DNA from: Thermoanaerobaculia bacterium
Lineage (GTDB): Bacteria; Acidobacteriota; Thermoanaerobaculia; Multivoradales; UBA5704
DNA: 64,000 nucleotides
NCBI GenBank assembly: GCA_036264085.1
Contig: DATARR010000045.1
Location: 19,649-83,648 of the forward strand
Direction: 5' to 3'
The notes below the pieces were generated by a model. It ran no database searches. It saw nothing but the letters and a program-made list of their open reading frames with translations, and was not told where the DNA came from. The position numbers and the translations under genes are program-made. Positions 6,346-63,998 of this stretch are shown here, piece by piece; the stretch's first letter is position 1, and the number at the start of each line of letters is the position of its first letter.

Positions 6346-7209
6346 ATGCCGGCCAGCGAAGTCCTCGAAGAGCCCTGCTCGGAATGCGGCGGCCGGGGGT
6401 GGGTCGTCGTCGCCGACGGCCGGGCGGGCACGGCCCGGCCGTGCGTCTGCCAGCGGCGCGACGTCGTCCCCCGCTTGATCCAGGCGGCGGGGATCCCCGC
6501 CCGCTATCGTCACTGCCGGCTGGCCAACTTCCACGTCTCGAGCGACAGGTCGCGCCAGGAGCCGCAGCTCGTGGCGGCCCGCAAGGCCGCGCAGGGGTAC
6601 GTCGACGGGTTCATTCAGGAGGGGATCGGCTTCCGCCAGTCGGGCCTCCTCTTCGTGGGTCCCCCGGGCGTGGGCAAGACGCACCTCGCCGTCGCCGTCC
6701 TCCTGGAGCTGATCGAGCGCTTCGAGCTCCACGGGCGGTTCGTGGAGTTCACCTCTCTCATCCACCAGCTCCAGTCCACCTTCGATTCCGACTCCCAGGA
6801 GTCCAAGCGGCAGGTCCTCGATCCCCTGTCCGAGGTCCCCTTCCTGGTCCTCGACGAGCTCGGAGCGCAGCAGCCGACGCCCTGGGTGAAGGACGTCCTC
6901 TACCTGATCATCAACGCGCGCTACACCCGCCGGCTGCCGACCCTCTTCACCACCAATTACCGCCTGGACGAGGGCGCCGCCGCGAAGAAGGCCCCCGTGC
7001 GGGTCTCGGGCCGGACGACGATGGTGGCGAAAAACTCTCTGGACCGTGGGCCTGACACCGAGCCGGTCAAGGAGGAGACGGCGCAGCTCTCCTCCCGGCT
7101 CCCCCCCATGCTGGTCAGCCGGCTCTACGAGATGGCGCAGCCGGTGGTGCTCGACGCCGTGGAGGACTTCCGGCGTGAGCAGGCCGTGCACGGGGCGCGC
7201 CTGCGATGA
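6346..7209 (+). CDS. DnaC/IstB-like AAA+ ATPase with an N-terminal Cys4 zinc-ribbon
   Basis: 'CSECGGRGW...CVC' followed by Walker A 'GPPGVGKTHL' and Walker B 'LVLDELG'. 'LIINARY....TLFTTN' is typical of DnaC/IstB helicase-loader-like proteins. Confidence 0.7.
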   Translation: MPASEVLEEPCSECGGRGWVVVADGRAGTARPCVCQRRDVVPRLIQAAGIPARYRHCRLANFHVSSDRSRQEPQLVAARKAAQGYVDGFIQEGIGFRQSGLLFVGPPGVGKTHLAVAVLLELIERFELHGRFVEFTSLIHQLQSTFDSDSQESKRQVLDPLSEVPFLVLDELGAQQPTPWVKDVLYLIINARYTRRLPTLFTTNYRLDEGAAAKKAPVRVSGRTTMVAKNSLDRGPDTEPVKEETAQLSSRLPPMLVSRLYEMAQPVVLDAVEDFRREQAVHGARLR

Positions 7210-10515: not shown

Positions 10516-10962
10516 CTATCCGGACTTTAGGACTTCAATGTGGGCACGTGCAGAGCCGGACGCCACCACCCGCCGATCGAACGTCAGGAGCGTGGCGCCG
10601 TTCGCTTCAGCGACCCCGAGTAGATAGGCATCCGTCACCTGCTGATGTCCGAGAAGATGACGGAAAACGCTCGCGGTTTGGGGCAGCGCCGGCAAGGTTT
10701 CCAGATAAACATGCTGCTGATCGCGGGTTAAATCAGCCAGCAGATCGACCGCCTCGGCCGGCGTCTTGCGCACCTCGACGATCGTCGGGTTGGACGACAG
10801 ACGAACGAAACCGAGTTGAGTCAGGGCACATGTCGCCCACCGCGGCACCGGTCGCTGCTCAAGTCGCGCCAACACCGCGGTATGGAACTGGTGATTCGGC
10901 CAAGCCAGTGCCAAGAGAGCGTTGACGTCCAGCAGAAGCGGCCGATTCTCAGACGATGCCAT
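10516..10962 (-). CDS. vapC: Type II toxin VapC (PIN domain)
   Basis: 'LLDVNALLALAWPNH' N-terminal PIN acidic motif and 'GATLLTFDRR' C-terminal motif. It overlaps the upstream antitoxin gene. Local GC is lower than in the flanks. Confidence 0.75.
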   Translation of the reverse strand: MASSENRPLLLDVNALLALAWPNHQFHTAVLARLEQRPVPRWATCALTQLGFVRLSSNPTIVEVRKTPAEAVDLLADLTRDQQHVYLETLPALPQTASVFRHLLGHQQVTDAYLLGVAEANGATLLTFDRRVVASGSARAHIEVLKSG

Positions 10963-11197
10963 CCTCGTCGAGGGCTTTCTGGATCCGCGAAGCGGGGATC
11001 ATCCGAGTGCCTGCCGGTACCTCGAAGACGGGAAAGCGCGAAGCCCCTTTCCCCGACCTCTTCGATCGGCGTCCGGAGGGTTGGAGCGCCTGCCGAGCCA
11101 TTTCGGACAGCACTTGGCCGAGCCGCTTGCCGGTCGCGTGGGCGTGCGCCTGCGCTGCTTCGTACACATCGTCGTCAAGGGTGACAGTCGTCCTCAT
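10949..11197 (-). CDS. vapB: Type II antitoxin VapB-like; the ORF could extend to 11233
   Basis: 'MRTTVTLDDDVYEAAQAHAHATGKRLGQVLSEMAR' is a typical antitoxin N-terminus. It has a 14-nt overlap with vapC. Confidence 0.7.
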   Translation of the reverse strand: MRTTVTLDDDVYEAAQAHAHATGKRLGQVLSEMARQALQPSGRRSKRSGKGASRFPVFEVPAGTRMIPASRIQKALDEDGIV

Positions 11198-11295
11198 GGC
11201 CGCAAGGATACAGTGATGTAGCTGCATCGGCAATCGACGAAGCCCTGTGCCTCCGGGAAGGTGGTAAGCTCCGTGCTCTGAGTGGAGCCGAAGCC

Positions 11296-12321: not shown

Positions 12322-14739
12322 ATGCCAACCATCGCCGAGATCTTCGAGACCCTGGAGTATGGCCCGGCGCCCGAGAGCGCCGACCCGGCCCTGGCCTGGC
12401 TGGAGGCTCGCGGCCGCGAGGTCCTCCCTTTCATCGGCGGCGCTTTCCGCAAGCCGGCTGCTGGCGAGTGGTTCGATACCCTGAATCCGGCCACGGCCAA
12501 GCCCCTCGCCCGCGTGGCCCAGTGCGGCGCGGCGGACGTGGACGCCGCCGTCGACGCGGCGCGGGCGGCTCAAGGTCCGTGGTGGGAGCTCGGAGGCCAC
12601 GGCCGCGCCCGTCATCTTTACGCCCTCGCCCGTCACGTGCAGAAGAACGCGCGTCTGCTCGCCGTGCTGGAGACCCTGGACAATGGCAAGCCTATCCGCG
12701 AGACGCGGGACATTGACGTTCCCCTCGTGGCCCGGCACTTCTACCACCACGCCGGCTGGGCCCAGCTCATGGCGCGCGAGCTTCCGGGCTACGTTCCCCT
12801 CGGCGTCGCCGGGCAGATCATCCCCTGGAACTTCCCTCTGCTCATGCTCGCCTGGAAGATCGCGCCGGCCCTCGCCATGGGCAACACGGTGGTGCTCAAG
12901 CCCGCCGAGTTCACGCCGCTGACCGCGGTCGCCTTCGCCGAGATCTGCCGCGACGCGGGCCTGCCGCCGGGAGTGGTCAACATCGTCACCGGCGATGGCC
13001 GCACGGGCGAGCTGATCGTCCGCCATCCCGGGATCGACAAGATCGCCTTCACCGGCTCGACCGACGTCGGCCGCCTGATCCGTGAGGCCACGGCGGGCAC
13101 CGGCAAGAAGCTGTCGCTGGAGCTGGGTGGCAAGTCCCCCTTCGTGGTCTTCGACGACGCCGACCTCGACGGCGCGGTCGAGGGGGTGGTGGACGCCATC
13201 TGGTTCAACCAGGGGGAGGTCTGCTGCGCCGGCTCGCGCCTGCTCGTGCAGGAGGGTGTGGCCGAAACGCTCTACGCTCGCCTCCGCGCCCGCATGGAGA
13301 CCCTGAGGGTGGGCGATCCGCGGGACAAGGCCATCGACATCGGCGCCATCATCGCACCGGTGCAGCTCGAGCGCATCGAGCGGCTGGTGCGCCAGGGAGT
13401 GGAGGAGGGCGCGAAGATGTGGCAGCCGTCCTGGAGCTGCCCGCGCGACGGCTGGTTCTATCCGCCCACCCTGTTCACCGAGGTCGAGCCGGCGGCCACC
13501 ATCGCCCAGGTCGAGATCTTCGGCCCGGTGCTCGTCGCCATGACCTTCCGCACGCCGGAGGAGGCCGTCGAGCTGGCGAACAATACGCGCTACGGCCTGG
13601 CGGCGAGCCTCTGGACGGAGAACGTCAACCTCGCCCTGGACCTCGCCGCGAAGATCAAGGCCGGCACCGTGTGGATCAACAGCACCAACCTGTTCGACGC
13701 GGCCTCCGGCTTCGGCGGCTATCGCGAGAGCGGCTTCGGCCGCGAGGGCGGCCGGGAGGGGCTCTGGGAGTACGTGCAGCCGCGCTGGGAGGCCGAGGCG
13801 AAGAAGAAGGACGTTAAGGACAGCAAGGACGGCAAGGACTTCAAGGACGAAGAGGACGACAGGGACGAGGACGCTTCGGCCGGGCTGCCGCCCATCGACC
13901 GCACGGCCAAGCTCTACATCGGCGGCAAGCAGACCCGGCCGGACGGCGAGGCCAGCCGCAAGGTCCTGGGTCCCGACGGGCGCCTGATCGGCGAGGTGGG
14001 GGAGGGGAACCGCAAGGACGTCCGCAACGCCGTCGAAGCCGCCCGCAAGGCCGCGCCCGGCTGGGCGAAGTCGACGGCTCATCTGCGGGCGCAGATCCTC
14101 TACTACGTGGCCGAGAACCTCGCCGCCCGGCGCGATGAATTCGTCCGCCGCCTTCACGCCATGATGGGCGCCGGTCCGGACGCCGCGGGCGCCGAGGTCG
14201 ATCTCGCGGTCGAGCGCCTCTTCACCAACGCCGCCTGGGCGGACAAGTACGCCGGCCGCGTCCAGGCGACACCGCTGCGCAACTTCACCTTCGCCGTCCA
14301 CGAGCCCATCGGCACCCTGGCCGTCGTCTGCCCGGACGAGCGCCCGCTGCTCGCCTTCGTCGCGACCGTGGCCCCGGCCGTGGCGATGGGCAACGCCGTC
14401 GTCGCCGTCCCCTCCGAGCGCTGGCCCCTGGCAGCCACGGACCTCTACCAGGTCTTCGACACTTCGGATGTCCCGGCGGGAGTCGTCAACATCGTCACCG
14501 GCGGCCGCGATGCCCTGGCCGGCGTCCTCGCCGCCCACGACGACGTCGACGCCCTCTGGTACTTCGGCAGCCGCGACGGCAGCGCCGCCGTCGAGCGCGC
14601 CTCGACCGGCAACCTCAAGCGCACCTGGGTCAACTACGGCCGCGCCCGCGACTGGGCCGATCCGGAGCAGGGATCAGGCGAGGAATTCCTCCGCCGCGCG
14701 ATCGAGGTGAAGAACATCTGGGCGCCGTTTGGGGAGTAG
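12322..14739 (+). CDS. Fused aldehyde dehydrogenase: a catalytic ALDH domain plus a degenerate second ALDH-like domain
   Basis: The first about 490 aa carry 'ELGGKSP' and 'FNQGEVCCAGSR' (catalytic Glu and Cys). A KD-rich linker follows. The second domain aligns to the ALDH N-terminal half but lacks these catalytic motifs. Confidence 0.8.
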   Translation: MPTIAEIFETLEYGPAPESADPALAWLEARGREVLPFIGGAFRKPAAGEWFDTLNPATAKPLARVAQCGAADVDAAVDAARAAQGPWWELGGHGRARHLYALARHVQKNARLLAVLETLDNGKPIRETRDIDVPLVARHFYHHAGWAQLMARELPGYVPLGVAGQIIPWNFPLLMLAWKIAPALAMGNTVVLKPAEFTPLTAVAFAEICRDAGLPPGVVNIVTGDGRTGELIVRHPGIDKIAFTGSTDVGRLIREATAGTGKKLSLELGGKSPFVVFDDADLDGAVEGVVDAIWFNQGEVCCAGSRLLVQEGVAETLYARLRARMETLRVGDPRDKAIDIGAIIAPVQLERIERLVRQGVEEGAKMWQPSWSCPRDGWFYPPTLFTEVEPAATIAQVEIFGPVLVAMTFRTPEEAVELANNTRYGLAASLWTENVNLALDLAAKIKAGTVWINSTNLFDAASGFGGYRESGFGREGGREGLWEYVQPRWEAEAKKKDVKDSKDGKDFKDEEDDRDEDASAGLPPIDRTAKLYIGGKQTRPDGEASRKVLGPDGRLIGEVGEGNRKDVRNAVEAARKAAPGWAKSTAHLRAQILYYVAENLAARRDEFVRRLHAMMGAGPDAAGAEVDLAVERLFTNAAWADKYAGRVQATPLRNFTFAVHEPIGTLAVVCPDERPLLAFVATVAPAVAMGNAVVAVPSERWPLAATDLYQVFDTSDVPAGVVNIVTGGRDALAGVLAAHDDVDALWYFGSRDGSAAVERASTGNLKRTWVNYGRARDWADPEQGSGEEFLRRAIEVKNIWAPFGE

Positions 14740-14926
14740 GCCACCTACCCCCTCTCCCAATCCTCGATCACCGCCTCCGCCGCCCGCCCGTCCCGCAGAC
14801 CATCTCCTGGAGTCTCAGGGCGCAGCGGAGGCCCGACACACCCGTCTCGACGATGACCACCCTCGCCTTGGCCCACCCGTTCCTTGTCACGGGCGAGGAT
14901 GATGGCTGCTTCGAGCGAGCAATGGA

Positions 14927-15388
14927 AGCGATGGACACGGCCGATCTCTCGCAGGGCCTGTCCGCTGAGCCAATGAGCGTGTCCTGCGGCTGGCAGGACC
15001 TGTCCCCTGAGCCGTAGGGCCTGTCCCATGAGACGCAGGACGTGTCCGATGGCTCGCGGGGCCTGCCCCATGGCCGAGAGGACATGCTCCACGAGCTAAA
15101 TGACATGTCTTATGTCTCGCAGGACACGTCCCATGAGCCAAGGGACACGTCCGATCAGCCAAGGGACACGTCCCATGAGCCAAGGGACACGTCCCATCAG
15201 CCGTAGGACGTGTCCTCTGAGCCAGAGGACACGCGCCATGAGCCAGAGGACATGTCCTATGAGCCGCGGGACCTGTCCCATGAGCCATGAGGCGCGTCCT
15301 CTGAGCCGCAGGACACGTCCTGCGAGCCATGAGACATGCCCCATGAGTCCTGAGCTCTGTCCCAGGGGCCAGAAGACGTCTCCTTTGA
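14927..15388. repeat. Tandem array of 22 units of exactly 21 bp, consensus GCCnnrGGACAYGTCCcATGA with a GGAC-N2-GTCC palindromic core
   Basis: I cut the region into 21-mers by hand. The register holds with no indels from 14927 to 15388. The best-conserved units lie at 15116-15199. Confidence 0.9.
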
Positions 15389-15394
15389 GCCATC

Positions 15395-16075
15395 CTACCC
15401 CCGCTCCCGCTCCAAGAAGTAATCCAGCAGCTCCGACGACGAGCTCTCCATCTCCACTCCGAGGTGCTGCACCCGCTGGCTGATGAAGTTGAACATCCAG
15501 GCCGCGGGCACGGCCACCACCAGCCCCAGGGCCGTGGTCAGCAGGGCTTCGGCGATGCCTTGGGAGACGGTGGCGAAGCCGCCCTGTCCGTTCGTGGCCG
15601 CGATGTCCTTGAAGGCATGGACGATCCCGACCACCGTGCCGAAGAGGCCGATGAAGGGCGCGGTGGTGGCGATCGTCGCGAGACTCCCCACGCCGCGGTT
15701 GAGCTCGGCCGTCGTCTGCATGGCGGCGCGGGCCAGGGCCCTCTGCGTGGCCTCCATCACTTCGGCGGCGGTCAGTCCCCGGGCGCTCTTCTGCTGGAAG
15801 GTCGAGAGACCGGCGGCCACCACCCGGGCGACGTGGCTGTGGGGAAACCGGCGGGCGGCCTCGATCGCCGTCTGCGGCACGCCGCCCTCGGCGAGATGGG
15901 GGGAGACCGCCCGCGCGAAGGCGATCGACTGCCGGCGCGCCCGCGACAGCACGATCAGCCGCTCCAGGGAGACGCCGAGGGACCAGACGGAGAGGAGGAC
16001 CAGGAGGACGATCACCACGAAGCCCGTGGCGCTGATCTTCCCGGCGAGGGCGAAGAGGGCGCTGGAACCGTTCAC
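15395..16075 (-). CDS. MotA/TolQ/ExbB proton-channel family protein
   Basis: 226 aa with three TM segments and the conserved C-terminal 'APFIGLFGTVVGIVHAF......GIAEALLTTALGL' ExbB/TolQ signature. Confidence 0.8.
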   Translation of the reverse strand: MNGSSALFALAGKISATGFVVIVLLVLLSVWSLGVSLERLIVLSRARRQSIAFARAVSPHLAEGGVPQTAIEAARRFPHSHVARVVAAGLSTFQQKSARGLTAAEVMEATQRALARAAMQTTAELNRGVGSLATIATTAPFIGLFGTVVGIVHAFKDIAATNGQGGFATVSQGIAEALLTTALGLVVAVPAAWMFNFISQRVQHLGVEMESSSSELLDYFLERERG

Positions 16076-19354: not shown

Positions 19355-19855
19355 ATGCCACGCCGCCTGCTGCCCGTCGCCGCTGTCGCGCTCTTCCTGA
19401 CTGCCGCCGCGCTGGCGCAGGAGCCGGCGCAGACGCCGGAGCCCAAGCCTGCCACGCCGGAGGCGCAGCCGGCCAAGAAGCCGGACGCCTTCAAGTATTT
19501 CTTTGGCAGGAGGGACGAGAAGGACAACAAGGACGCCAAGGACAGCAAGGACAAGAAGGACGCCGGAGCCAGGACCGAGGCGGCTCCGGTGAAGGCGGCG
19601 GAGCCCGCGGCGGTGAAGGAGGCTCCTCCGGCGCAGGCCCCGGCGCCCGCGCCGGTCCCCGAGCCGGCGGTCGCGAAGCCTGCTCCCAGGGTGGATGCCT
19701 TCCAATATTTCTTCGGGAAGAGCGCCCAGCCGGTCCCGGCCGCCGGGACCAAGAAAGACGAGCCTGGCGAGAAGAAGCCCCTCGACGCCTTCGACTACCT
19801 GTTCGGCAAGAAGGAGCCGGAGAAGAAGGAGCCCGCCAGGCCGCCGGGCTCGTAG
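19355..19855 (+). CDS. Secreted low-complexity protein with three 'DAFxY(F/L)FGK' repeats
   Basis: Signal peptide 'MPRRLLPVAAVALFLTAAALAQE'. Motifs DAFKYFFGR, DAFQYFFGK and DAFDYLFGK are separated by PA/KD-rich spacers. Confidence 0.55.
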   Translation: MPRRLLPVAAVALFLTAAALAQEPAQTPEPKPATPEAQPAKKPDAFKYFFGRRDEKDNKDAKDSKDKKDAGARTEAAPVKAAEPAAVKEAPPAQAPAPAPVPEPAVAKPAPRVDAFQYFFGKSAQPVPAAGTKKDEPGEKKPLDAFDYLFGKKEPEKKEPARPPGS

Positions 19856-35343: not shown

Positions 35344-35393
35344 GGAGGGAAGCATCCCCCCGGCCCTCATTCCGTCGACCCGCTCTCCTCTGT

Positions 35394-35440
35394 GTCCGTG
35401 CCTGTCCTTGCCGTCCGTGCCCGTCCGTGAGCCGCGTCCG
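35394..35440 (+). repeat. Four to five GTCC(G/T)TG heptamers at about 10-bp spacing
   Basis: GTCCGTG at 35394, GTCCTTG at 35404, GTCCGTG at 35413 and 35423, and GTCCG at 35436. Confidence 0.7.
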
Positions 35441-49200: not shown

Positions 49201-49307
49201 CCAAGGAGAACACGGACGAACAAGGACGAACACGGACCAACACGGACGTGAACAGCGAAGATCGGCCGCTGTGCTTGAAGTCCTTGGTTTGTCCGTGTTC
49301 GTCCTTG
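49201..49307. repeat. Four direct CA(C/A)GGAC heptamers at exact 10-bp spacing plus three inverted copies; a 17-bp perfect inverted repeat lies within
   Basis: Direct copies at 49211, 49221, 49231 and 49241. Inverted GTCC(T/G)TG copies at 49280, 49291 and 49301. caaggacgaacacggac (49221-49237) is the reverse complement of 49291-49307. Confidence 0.85.
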
Positions 49308-63961: not shown

Positions 63962-63998
63962 CACGGACGAGCACGGACGGACACGGACGAGCACGGAC
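63962..63998. repeat. Four CACGGAC heptamers at exact 10-bp spacing upstream of the 1436-aa gene; the array may continue beyond the window
   Basis: CACGGAC at 63962, 63972, 63982 and 63992. The orientation relative to the downstream gene is the same as at 49211-49247. Confidence 0.8.

Follow-up and report, generated by a model that had tools for sequence, protein, structure and literature searches.

A non-coding array of 22 palindromic 21-bp units in Thermoanaerobaculia is held in phase under dyad-symmetric constraint

Introduction

Long tandem arrays of sites bound by proteins belong to the textbook picture of plasmids, in which they form centromeres and copy-control iterons, and are almost unknown on bacterial chromosomes away from such genes. 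The parC centromere of pSK41 is made of tandem 20-bp repeats bound by ParR, while sopC of the F plasmid is a tandem array of 12 x 43 bp with an inverted repeat in each unit that is bound by a dimer. Arrays of the sopC, iteron and incA type can also serve as protein sinks. Iterons are usually asymmetric direct repeats situated beside a rep gene and an AT-rich unwinding region. Tandem ARG boxes, the sites of ArgR, are 18-bp imperfect palindromes placed 3 bp apart, i.e. 21 bp from centre to centre; the operators hold 2–4 of them, are AT-rich and lie in the promoters of the regulon. The MIRUs, which are mycobacterial variable-number tandem repeats (VNTRs), have few units of 40–100 bp, and these are homogenised. 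For parS of plasmid pSM19035, the ribbon-helix-helix (RHH) protein ParB requires at least four contiguous repeats without gaps (PMC9499535). Here, a tandem array is described in a stretch of 64,000 nucleotides (hereafter the window) of contig DATARR010000045.1, positions 19,649 to 83,648, from a Thermoanaerobaculia bacterium, a member of a poorly studied, largely uncultivated soil lineage. It consists of 22 units of 21 bp with a GGAC-RY-GTCC core and resembles pSM19035 parS and pSK41 parC in being a gap-free head-to-tail row of short sites, in which contiguity and phase matter.

Results and discussion

The array is real. As the initial annotation had stated, positions 14927-15388 (462 bp) can be cut into 22 contiguous 21-mers without a single indel. 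The consensus GCCACAGGACATGTCCCATGA is matched at 11–19 of the 21 positions per unit, with the edge units being the most degenerate; in-phase 21-mers just outside the array match it at 3–8 positions. In the register used for the whole family, with the minus-strand unit GCTCATnGGACryGTCCynYG, the same DNA is shifted by 2 nt and spans 14929..15390. Tandem Repeats Finder (TRF) confirmed the period of 21 bp over two better-preserved stretches (14993-15072 and 15122-15347; 72–73% matches, 0% indels) and also gave a 63-bp higher-order period. A two-unit pattern allowing at most two mismatches has 11 matches in the window, all 11 of them within the array, compared to 0.01 expected from shuffles. Ten of the 22 units contain the core GGACNNGTCC without a mismatch, and the rest of the 64 kb has one further copy (3.0 expected). 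Five successive exact cores (15122-15215) are included in the best-preserved block (15096..15347, minus strand). The central units had at first been taken as near-identical. This holds for three of them (15137-15199; 19–20 of 21 positions) but not for the remainder, the mean pairwise identity of the units being about 13/21. Likewise, the perfect palindrome first read in the consensus, GGACATGTCC, does exist, but in one unit, and is not the typical core, since GGACACGTCC is the most frequent one.

Each GGAC-RY-GTCC core lies within an imperfect 18-bp palindrome, followed by the polar 3-bp linker GCT. A weak 7-bp sub-period is also present, the autocorrelation at lags 7 and 14 being above that at all other non-21 lags. 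The GC content of the array is 61–65%, compared to 70% for the window, without any AT-rich tract, and the longest exact repeat inside it measures 31 nt. Structure prediction gives long and very stable hairpins for both strands (-267.5 and -248.8 kcal/mol, z about -10), and a look for sites resembling promoters or terminators was negative.

Exact-pattern scans for the family unit located arrays of 19–27 units at no fewer than three non-homologous intergenic loci in Thermoanaerobaculia, with one array locus per metagenome-assembled genome (MAG). The array of L001/L131 (27 units in L001) is orthologous to that of the window, as the aldehyde dehydrogenase gene described below provides a synteny anchor. 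Those of L002 and L128 (23 and 19 units) are mutually orthologous, bordered by the stop codon of an M1 peptidase gene on one side and an RHH-MazF pair on the other, and the 20-unit array of L132 lies between divergent genes. Copy number varies among relatives, a point raised when the array was first noticed, with 22 units in the window versus 27 in L001, and 23 in L002 versus 19 in L128. A look-up of copy-number polymorphism found no second assembly of the window strain beyond the source contig, a JGI metagenome contig of 156 kb, and a look-up with the exact ExbB sequence was negative. The arrays fill the intergenic space right up to the stop codons and end about 70 bp ahead of the next start codon in L001 and L128. 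Relative to the flanking genes, the units are co-directional in the window and L001 and antisense in L002. At the RHH-MazF loci (L002 5257-5966 and L128 1475-1857), the array is situated about 70–400 bp upstream of an RHH (CopG/VapB-like) antitoxin gene and the MazF toxin gene, where the operator of the antitoxin would be expected. The window holds no homologue of this antitoxin.

A sister family with the unit GCYCATTGGA-N4-TCCAATG, i.e. an 18-bp palindrome with a variable 4-bp centre plus a 3-bp linker, was found in other Thermoanaerobaculia assemblies (L129 2273-2755, also L130; L151 4690-5110; L169 5650-6200), where it adjoins MiaE, TrmO and ADH genes. It has higher-order periods of 63 or 104 bp and, in contrast to the GGAC family, occasionally slips phase by 1 nt. 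Across 183 kb of Thermoanaerobaculia DNA, every tandem-repeat region of at least 80 bp has a period of 21 bp or a multiple thereof. Arrays with a 21-bp period and unrelated palindrome-bearing units also occur in three related genomes, in L005 (7537-7755), L007 (6723-6975) and L010 (6681-6910), between an ExbB gene and a downstream gene for a phosphodiesterase-like membrane protein; one unit type is GCCCCTCGCGRATTGCATCAC and another has an 84-bp higher-order unit holding GGGGAT...ATCCCC. The two genes flanking the array point the same way in the window, L001, L002/L128 and the sister locus L151.

The flanks of non-orthologous arrays have no sequence in common, and across the arrays neither a recurrent neighbour gene nor a common leader was found, their Pfam contexts being unrelated. 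BLAST against plasmid and phage records gave no match to the array. In Rfam, the window array has only sub-threshold chance matches (E >= 0.19), and 12 related or look-alike loci gave no match at the gathering score. No description of such arrays was found in the literature either, so the early remark that no described family matches stands after all these searches. The GGAC arrays are a small, previously undescribed, lineage-specific family in soil Acidobacteria (class Thermoanaerobaculia).

The constraint on the units was assessed with 111 units from five GGAC-type arrays. C11 is retained in 110 of these, G14 and C16 in 109 each and G9 in 105, with positions 7, 18 and 19 being almost free to vary. 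Conservation is mirror-symmetric (positions 8/17, 89/89; 9/16, 105/109; 10/15, 91/84; 11/14, 110/109), the central dinucleotide varies as expected of single steps from AT, and the conservation per position correlates across non-orthologous arrays (Spearman r 0.59–0.75). Compensatory covariation was not detected: when a unit is paired with itself or with its successor, complementarity does not exceed that reached with a randomly drawn unit. The changes affect one side of a pair, with counts for pair 10-15 of 71 A/T, 10 G/T, 10 A/C and 3 G/C. A strand-specific G-U signature is not seen: pair 5/20 points to one strand, pair 6/19 to the opposite one.

None of the 111 phased units contains an indel, though each departs from the consensus at several of its 21 positions; the sole 1-nt deletion belongs to the decayed last unit of L001. 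In bacterial non-coding DNA, the indel-to-substitution ratio is roughly 1:5 to 1:20. Therefore, tens of indels would be expected in these units under neutrality. Identity between units is 12.9–14.0/21 within an array and 12.9–13.4/21 across arrays, loci and species. Since the likeness within arrays is no greater than that between them, each unit tracks a common motif and did not arise as a recent copy of the one beside it. Orthologous arrays with 93% identical flanks have their units in scrambled order relative to each other, with motif and phase persisting, and the window array persists even though the oxidase gene downstream of it is destroyed. The array is under a position-specific, dyad-symmetric and phase-preserving constraint that is common to arrays at unrelated loci. 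As judged from sequence, each unit appears to be held near a common dyad motif, and the 21-bp register appears to be held too. Outside the arrays, GACRYGTC occurs 8 times in 180 kb of Thermoanaerobaculia DNA (the window, L001-L010, L128, L129 and L132, arrays excluded), compared to 18.4 +/- 4.6 expected from dinucleotide shuffles. This scarcity may mean that ectopic sites, or else a restriction site, are avoided.

Base-specific, dyad-symmetric conservation around a variable centre, without covariation, is what operator half-sites contacted by a homodimer on double-stranded DNA would show, and such half-sites are favoured as its source. The array may be a phased row of dyad operator sites for a dimeric DNA-binding protein, carrying a long nucleoprotein filament, a reading that is preferred here but held tentatively. 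With a period of 21 bp, successive dyads lie two helical turns apart on one face of the helix, which allows side-by-side cooperative contacts. A putative sequence-specific dimeric protein would occupy each GGAC-RY-GTCC core. An RHH-type protein is a candidate, as it would fit the compact 8–10-bp dyad and the GAC-NN-GTC core has the size read by one beta-ribbon of an RHH dimer. Adjacent dimers, being two helical turns apart on the same helix face, would interact, and the 460-bp array would assemble one long cooperative nucleoprotein filament. Such a filament might act as a protein sink, as an insulator or regulator of the gene just downstream, or as a chromosome-organising site. Protein binding as the source of the constraint, the type of protein and the consequence of binding are all what we infer. 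Two further points speak for this reading, namely that the array stops about 70 bp short of the next start codon in L001 and L128 and that pSM19035 parS has an architecture of a similar general kind. The suggestion of a nucleoprotein site in the initial annotation thus comes out as the best-supported candidate explanation, given the dyad conservation common to non-orthologous arrays and the lack of indels and of homogenisation.

Several observations weigh against the operator reading. No DNA-binding gene recurs beside the arrays, whose neighbours encode P450, amine oxidase, peptidase M1, MiaE, TrmO and ADH; the RHH-MazF pair, seen at a single type of locus, is the only exception. The motif was not found in isolated copies upstream of other genes, and GGACNNGTCC occurs 4 times in the 180 kb versus 7.0 expected. 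The family is sporadic, being present in few species with one array per MAG at different loci, which makes a core cellular function unlikely. The TTGGA-N4-TCCAA sister arrays (L151, L169) tolerate phase slips, so strict helical phasing is not universal. To our knowledge, 20 or more sites is also far above any known chromosomal operator. Finally, selection at the level of the repeat could mimic the base conservation, its correlation between arrays and the lack of covariation, indels and homogenisation.

The upkeep of the dyad, the exact phase, the absence of homogenisation and the independence from neighbours would point to a sequence-specific partner protein with an uncatalogued function. A bolder proposal, which goes beyond operator sites as such and is rather unlikely, is that the arrays form a new class of chromosomal nucleoprotein-filament locus. 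Each genome would then hold one exactly phased row of 20–27 dyad operators coated by a small dimeric (possibly RHH) protein. Whatever its neighbouring genes, this row would be a dedicated device to sink or titrate protein, or else a site that organises the chromosome or resembles a centromere, and the sister half-site families would be the sites of paralogous proteins.

A possible but less probable explanation than operator sites is a selfish or structural minisatellite without benefit to the cell. It would arise through hairpin-assisted slippage or unequal recombination, the core being a requirement for copying (molecular drive) and the arrays being tolerated junk and rearrangement hotspots. 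The distribution suits this explanation, since the arrays are sporadic, lineage-restricted and placed at non-homologous loci without a common flank, and the clade also has other 21-bp arrays, built of different units. The same applies to the rapid turnover of unit order and to the differing copy numbers of orthologous arrays, to the higher-order periods of 42, 63 and 84 bp, which are typical of satellites, and to the hairpins predicted on either strand, as such structures promote slippage. Moreover, two rearrangement breakpoints flank the window array, and the arrays take up intergenic space as far as the stop codons. As head-to-tail repeats whose copy number varies among relatives, they are minisatellites or VNTRs in the generic sense, a label that is descriptive only and silent on function. 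However, a drive based on hairpins should keep complementarity, whereas specific bases are kept here without compensatory changes. Recent amplification predicts a greater likeness within arrays, which is not observed, and neutral decay should leave indels, of which the 111 units have none. The motif is also confined to a single locus per MAG instead of being multi-copy. If the array were selfish after all, palindromic minisatellites would act as breakpoints for gene loss and rearrangement.

An RNA element is a good deal less likely than either. According to this explanation, tandem small hairpins or a long imperfect duplex would be cotranscribed with the neighbouring genes and function as a processing or stability element (e.g., an RNase III substrate) or sequester an RNA-binding protein as a sponge. 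The predicted structure is very strong on both strands, and read-through transcription is plausible at the loci with equally oriented flanking genes (the window, L001, L002/L128 and L151). Against it stand the lack of both covariation and a strand-specific G-U signature, the inconsistent orientation relative to the genes (co-directional in the window and L001, antisense in L002), the position of the L132 array between divergent genes, and the absence of an Rfam match and of a promoter-like or terminator-like site.

That the array or its junction with the ExbB gene is an artefact of short-read metagenome assembly is very improbable. The window comes from a single metagenome contig, no second assembly of the strain is available, and the ExbB-array junction is absent from every relative compared. 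Yet the longest exact internal repeat of 31 nt is below usual assembly k-mers, independent assemblies from other samples carry arrays of the same family with 19–27 diverged units, and the distal flank is collinear with L001.

The array does not code for protein, and the least likely of all explanations is that it forms a gene, coupled to ExbB in translation, for the heptad-repeat protein (A-H-G-T-C-P-x)n. A minus-strand frame of 168 codons (14887..15393) does run across the array as first described, encoding heptads A-H-G/R-T-C/R/G-P-x, with its ATG 1 nt past the ExbB stop codon; it is not considered a gene. In its favour, no stop interrupts any of the 22 units, 21 bp corresponds to 7 codons, no indel shifts the frame, and the corresponding frame is largely open in L001 and L132. 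However, its GC3 of 0.48 and CAI-like score of 0.17, the lowest of the six frames, are far outside the range of ten Pfam-supported window genes (GC3 0.89–0.95; self-trained CAI-like score 0.67–0.80). As had been pointed out, several other frames are open, with stop codons missing from five of the six frames of the consensus. When alignment columns are permuted among the units, the frame is stop-free in 95% of these column-preserving shuffles, and the stops observed equal the shuffle expectation in all frames of all five arrays. The corresponding frame contains stops in L001 (1), L002 (2) and L128 (1), past which the repeat units run on, and the sole fully open frame of L002 is a different one. 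The most variable unit positions are first codon positions, giving G/R/W, C/R/G and any residue. A Pfam search of three array frames gave no match, no homologue of the 168-aa frame was found among 5.8 billion proteins at E <= 1e-3, and the frame was not called by the JGI gene caller on the source contig. Together with the derived origin of the ExbB junction (see below), these results lead to rejection of the coding reading, about which doubts had been voiced from the start. The family therefore offers a clean computational example of how a constrained site array can be separated from a coding heptad repeat and a young minisatellite.

Neighbouring genes and rearrangement

On one side, the array borders a MotA/ExbB-family gene (15395..16075, minus strand; Pfam PF01618, E = 7.4e-30), whose stop codon is 4 nt from the first unit. 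On the other side lies the remnant of a flavin amine-oxidase gene (14745..14938, minus strand), in which the first ~45 codons (14938-14804) run straight into the last ~20 (14803-14745). The intact ORF in L001 (2005-3468) has 487 codons, and compared to it about 1117 bp are deleted at the 14803/14804 junction. Next to it is a two-domain aldehyde dehydrogenase gene (12322..14739, plus strand; Pfam Aldedh) with 93.7% nucleotide identity to L001 3411-5893. In its 805-aa product, two fused Aldedh-like halves are connected by a Lys/Asp-rich linker that is encoded by 9-bp repeats (AAGGACGAC x 7) at 13807-13868; similar KD-rich 9-bp repeats are found at 19513-19561 and 41497-41617 of the window. By Pfam, the window neighbours are ExbB, polyprenyl synthase, STAS, aldehyde dehydrogenase and DeoC.

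The ExbB orthologues, with 86–93% identity, assign the window to soil Thermoanaerobaculia (phylum Acidobacteriota). The closest relative, MAG JAJKHS01, carries the same array family on a contig separate from its ExbB gene. At this locus (L001), the 27 units lie between a cytochrome P450 gene and the intact flavin amine-oxidase gene, which begins about 70 bp past the array and is followed by the orthologous two-domain aldehyde dehydrogenase gene. Window positions 15328-14803 align with the L001 array and the start of the oxidase, and 14804-12324 are 93.7% identical to the L001 locus. In contrast, homology to the ExbB locus of the relative (L003) ends at 15394 with the stop codon of ExbB. At most other orthologous loci (L003, L004, L006 and L008), ExbB is followed shortly downstream by a gene for a phosphodiesterase-like membrane protein, and the ExbB-array junction was not seen in any relative. 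Two structural changes therefore touch the window array, namely the oxidase deletion and the breakpoint at the ExbB stop. This breakpoint, together with the collinearity on the oxidase and aldehyde dehydrogenase side, makes the position behind an orphan ExbB a derived rearrangement with its breakpoint at the array edge. The initial description of the array as lying immediately behind an orphan ExbB/TolQ gene is thus misleading: the adjacency is incidental, and the array goes with the amine-oxidase/aldehyde dehydrogenase side.

Elsewhere in the window, a PIN-domain toxin and a weak VapB-like antitoxin form a pair at ~10516-11227 (L183 2195-2906), 3.7 kb from the array, and an ORF for an IstB/AAA-like ATPase is situated at 6346-7209. 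Three short 10-bp tandem arrays (35393-35429, 49202-49248 and 63962-63998; e.g., GAACACGGAC x 4) have the word CACGGAC in common. The first two of these were checked against the ORFs and sit at ORF boundaries. They may represent another dispersed direct-repeat motif, e.g., response-regulator-type sites.

Occurrence beyond Thermoanaerobaculia

A scan for three GGACNNGTCC cores at 21-bp spacing gave at least 118 stretches in many phyla, some of them within large ORFs. In viral contigs, a non-palindromic control of the same composition was found in 8 stretches versus 7 for the palindrome. By chance alone, the motif would be present in about 1 in 3000 of all repeats with a 21-bp period, and simple arithmetic predicts hundreds of such carriers. 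With the control being as frequent and chance carriers being expected, the stretches are treated as mostly unrelated, and a cross-phylum class of GGAC-N2-GTCC arrays is not claimed. GAGCC recurs in the spacers of the cross-phylum stretches, which is suggestive only. Three Diplocloster species, accounting for many of the loci L014-L126, have dozens of short 21-bp arrays of 3–7 units GGGACATGTCCATTYCRGTTT per genome (e.g., L022 2166-2257 and L063 3058-3191). Several of these begin right past stop codons and finish in inverted units, with an A-run and a T-run on either side. They have the look of bidirectional terminator hairpins that have expanded, and their origin is not related to that of the window array.

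Comparison with known systems

Some known systems differ from the array in their basic organisation. A CRISPR array was rejected because the units are contiguous and all 462 bp are repeat, without spacers. Type III toxin-antitoxin repeats (ToxI-like) were rejected as no ToxN/AbiQ-type gene is located downstream of the arrays (amine oxidase, RHH-MazF, ADH and others) and no terminator-like site is present. REP/BIME elements are likewise intergenic imperfect palindromes of ~20 bp that abut gene ends and are associated with rearrangements. However, they occur in tens to hundreds of dispersed copies, usually with alternating orientation and variable linkers. The RAYT-associated REP/BIME class was discarded since the present family has one locus per MAG, a strictly phased direct array and no dispersed excess of GGACNNGTCC in the 64 kb or the 180 kb. 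Like MIRUs, the arrays are intergenic tandem repeats with copy numbers varying in relatives and with ORF-like frames touching the stop or start codons of neighbours. Unlike them, they have 19–27 old, diverged units with a dyad core and exact phase, and no homogenisation.

A plasmid iteron origin or copy-control array was rejected too, as there is no rep gene nearby and no plasmid match, the GC content is 61–65% and the units are dyad-symmetric. As for partition, a crude motif scan of the six-frame translation of the 64 kb, which is not a full annotation, found no deviant Walker-A ParA motif, and its one ParB-like motif match is in a spurious frame. Neither parA/parB, parR/parM nor rep genes are present among the Pfam-scanned neighbours in the window and five other loci. 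With no linked par operon and no plasmid or phage match, a partition centromere in the strict sense is not supported. The labels iteron and centromere first attached to the array lack support in that sense, with rep and par genes missing nearby and the contexts being chromosomal and metabolic.

More instructive are the tandem operators and centromeres. Like sopC and other titration arrays, the window array is long and tandem, with an inverted repeat in its units. Its unit geometry is that of the ARG boxes, i.e. an 18-bp imperfect palindrome plus a 3-bp linker with dyads two turns apart on one face. Unlike ARG operators, it comprises 22 boxes, is GC-rich and has no dispersed single sites. In pSM19035 parS, 7-bp heptads in mixed orientation are bound by omega/ParB. 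The compact dyad core of the array would suit a single beta-ribbon in one major groove, and its weak 7-bp sub-period recalls these heptads. Unlike plasmid centromeres, the array is chromosomal and lies among metabolic genes, has 19–27 units instead of 4–10 and has no sequence similarity to them, so that resemblance to the pSM19035 centromere, and not membership, is what is established. Overall, the array is most like a plasmid centromere or a tandem operator array, yet falls outside both groups as they are defined, and its architecture would be compatible with contiguous, phased centromere repeats bound cooperatively by a dimer.

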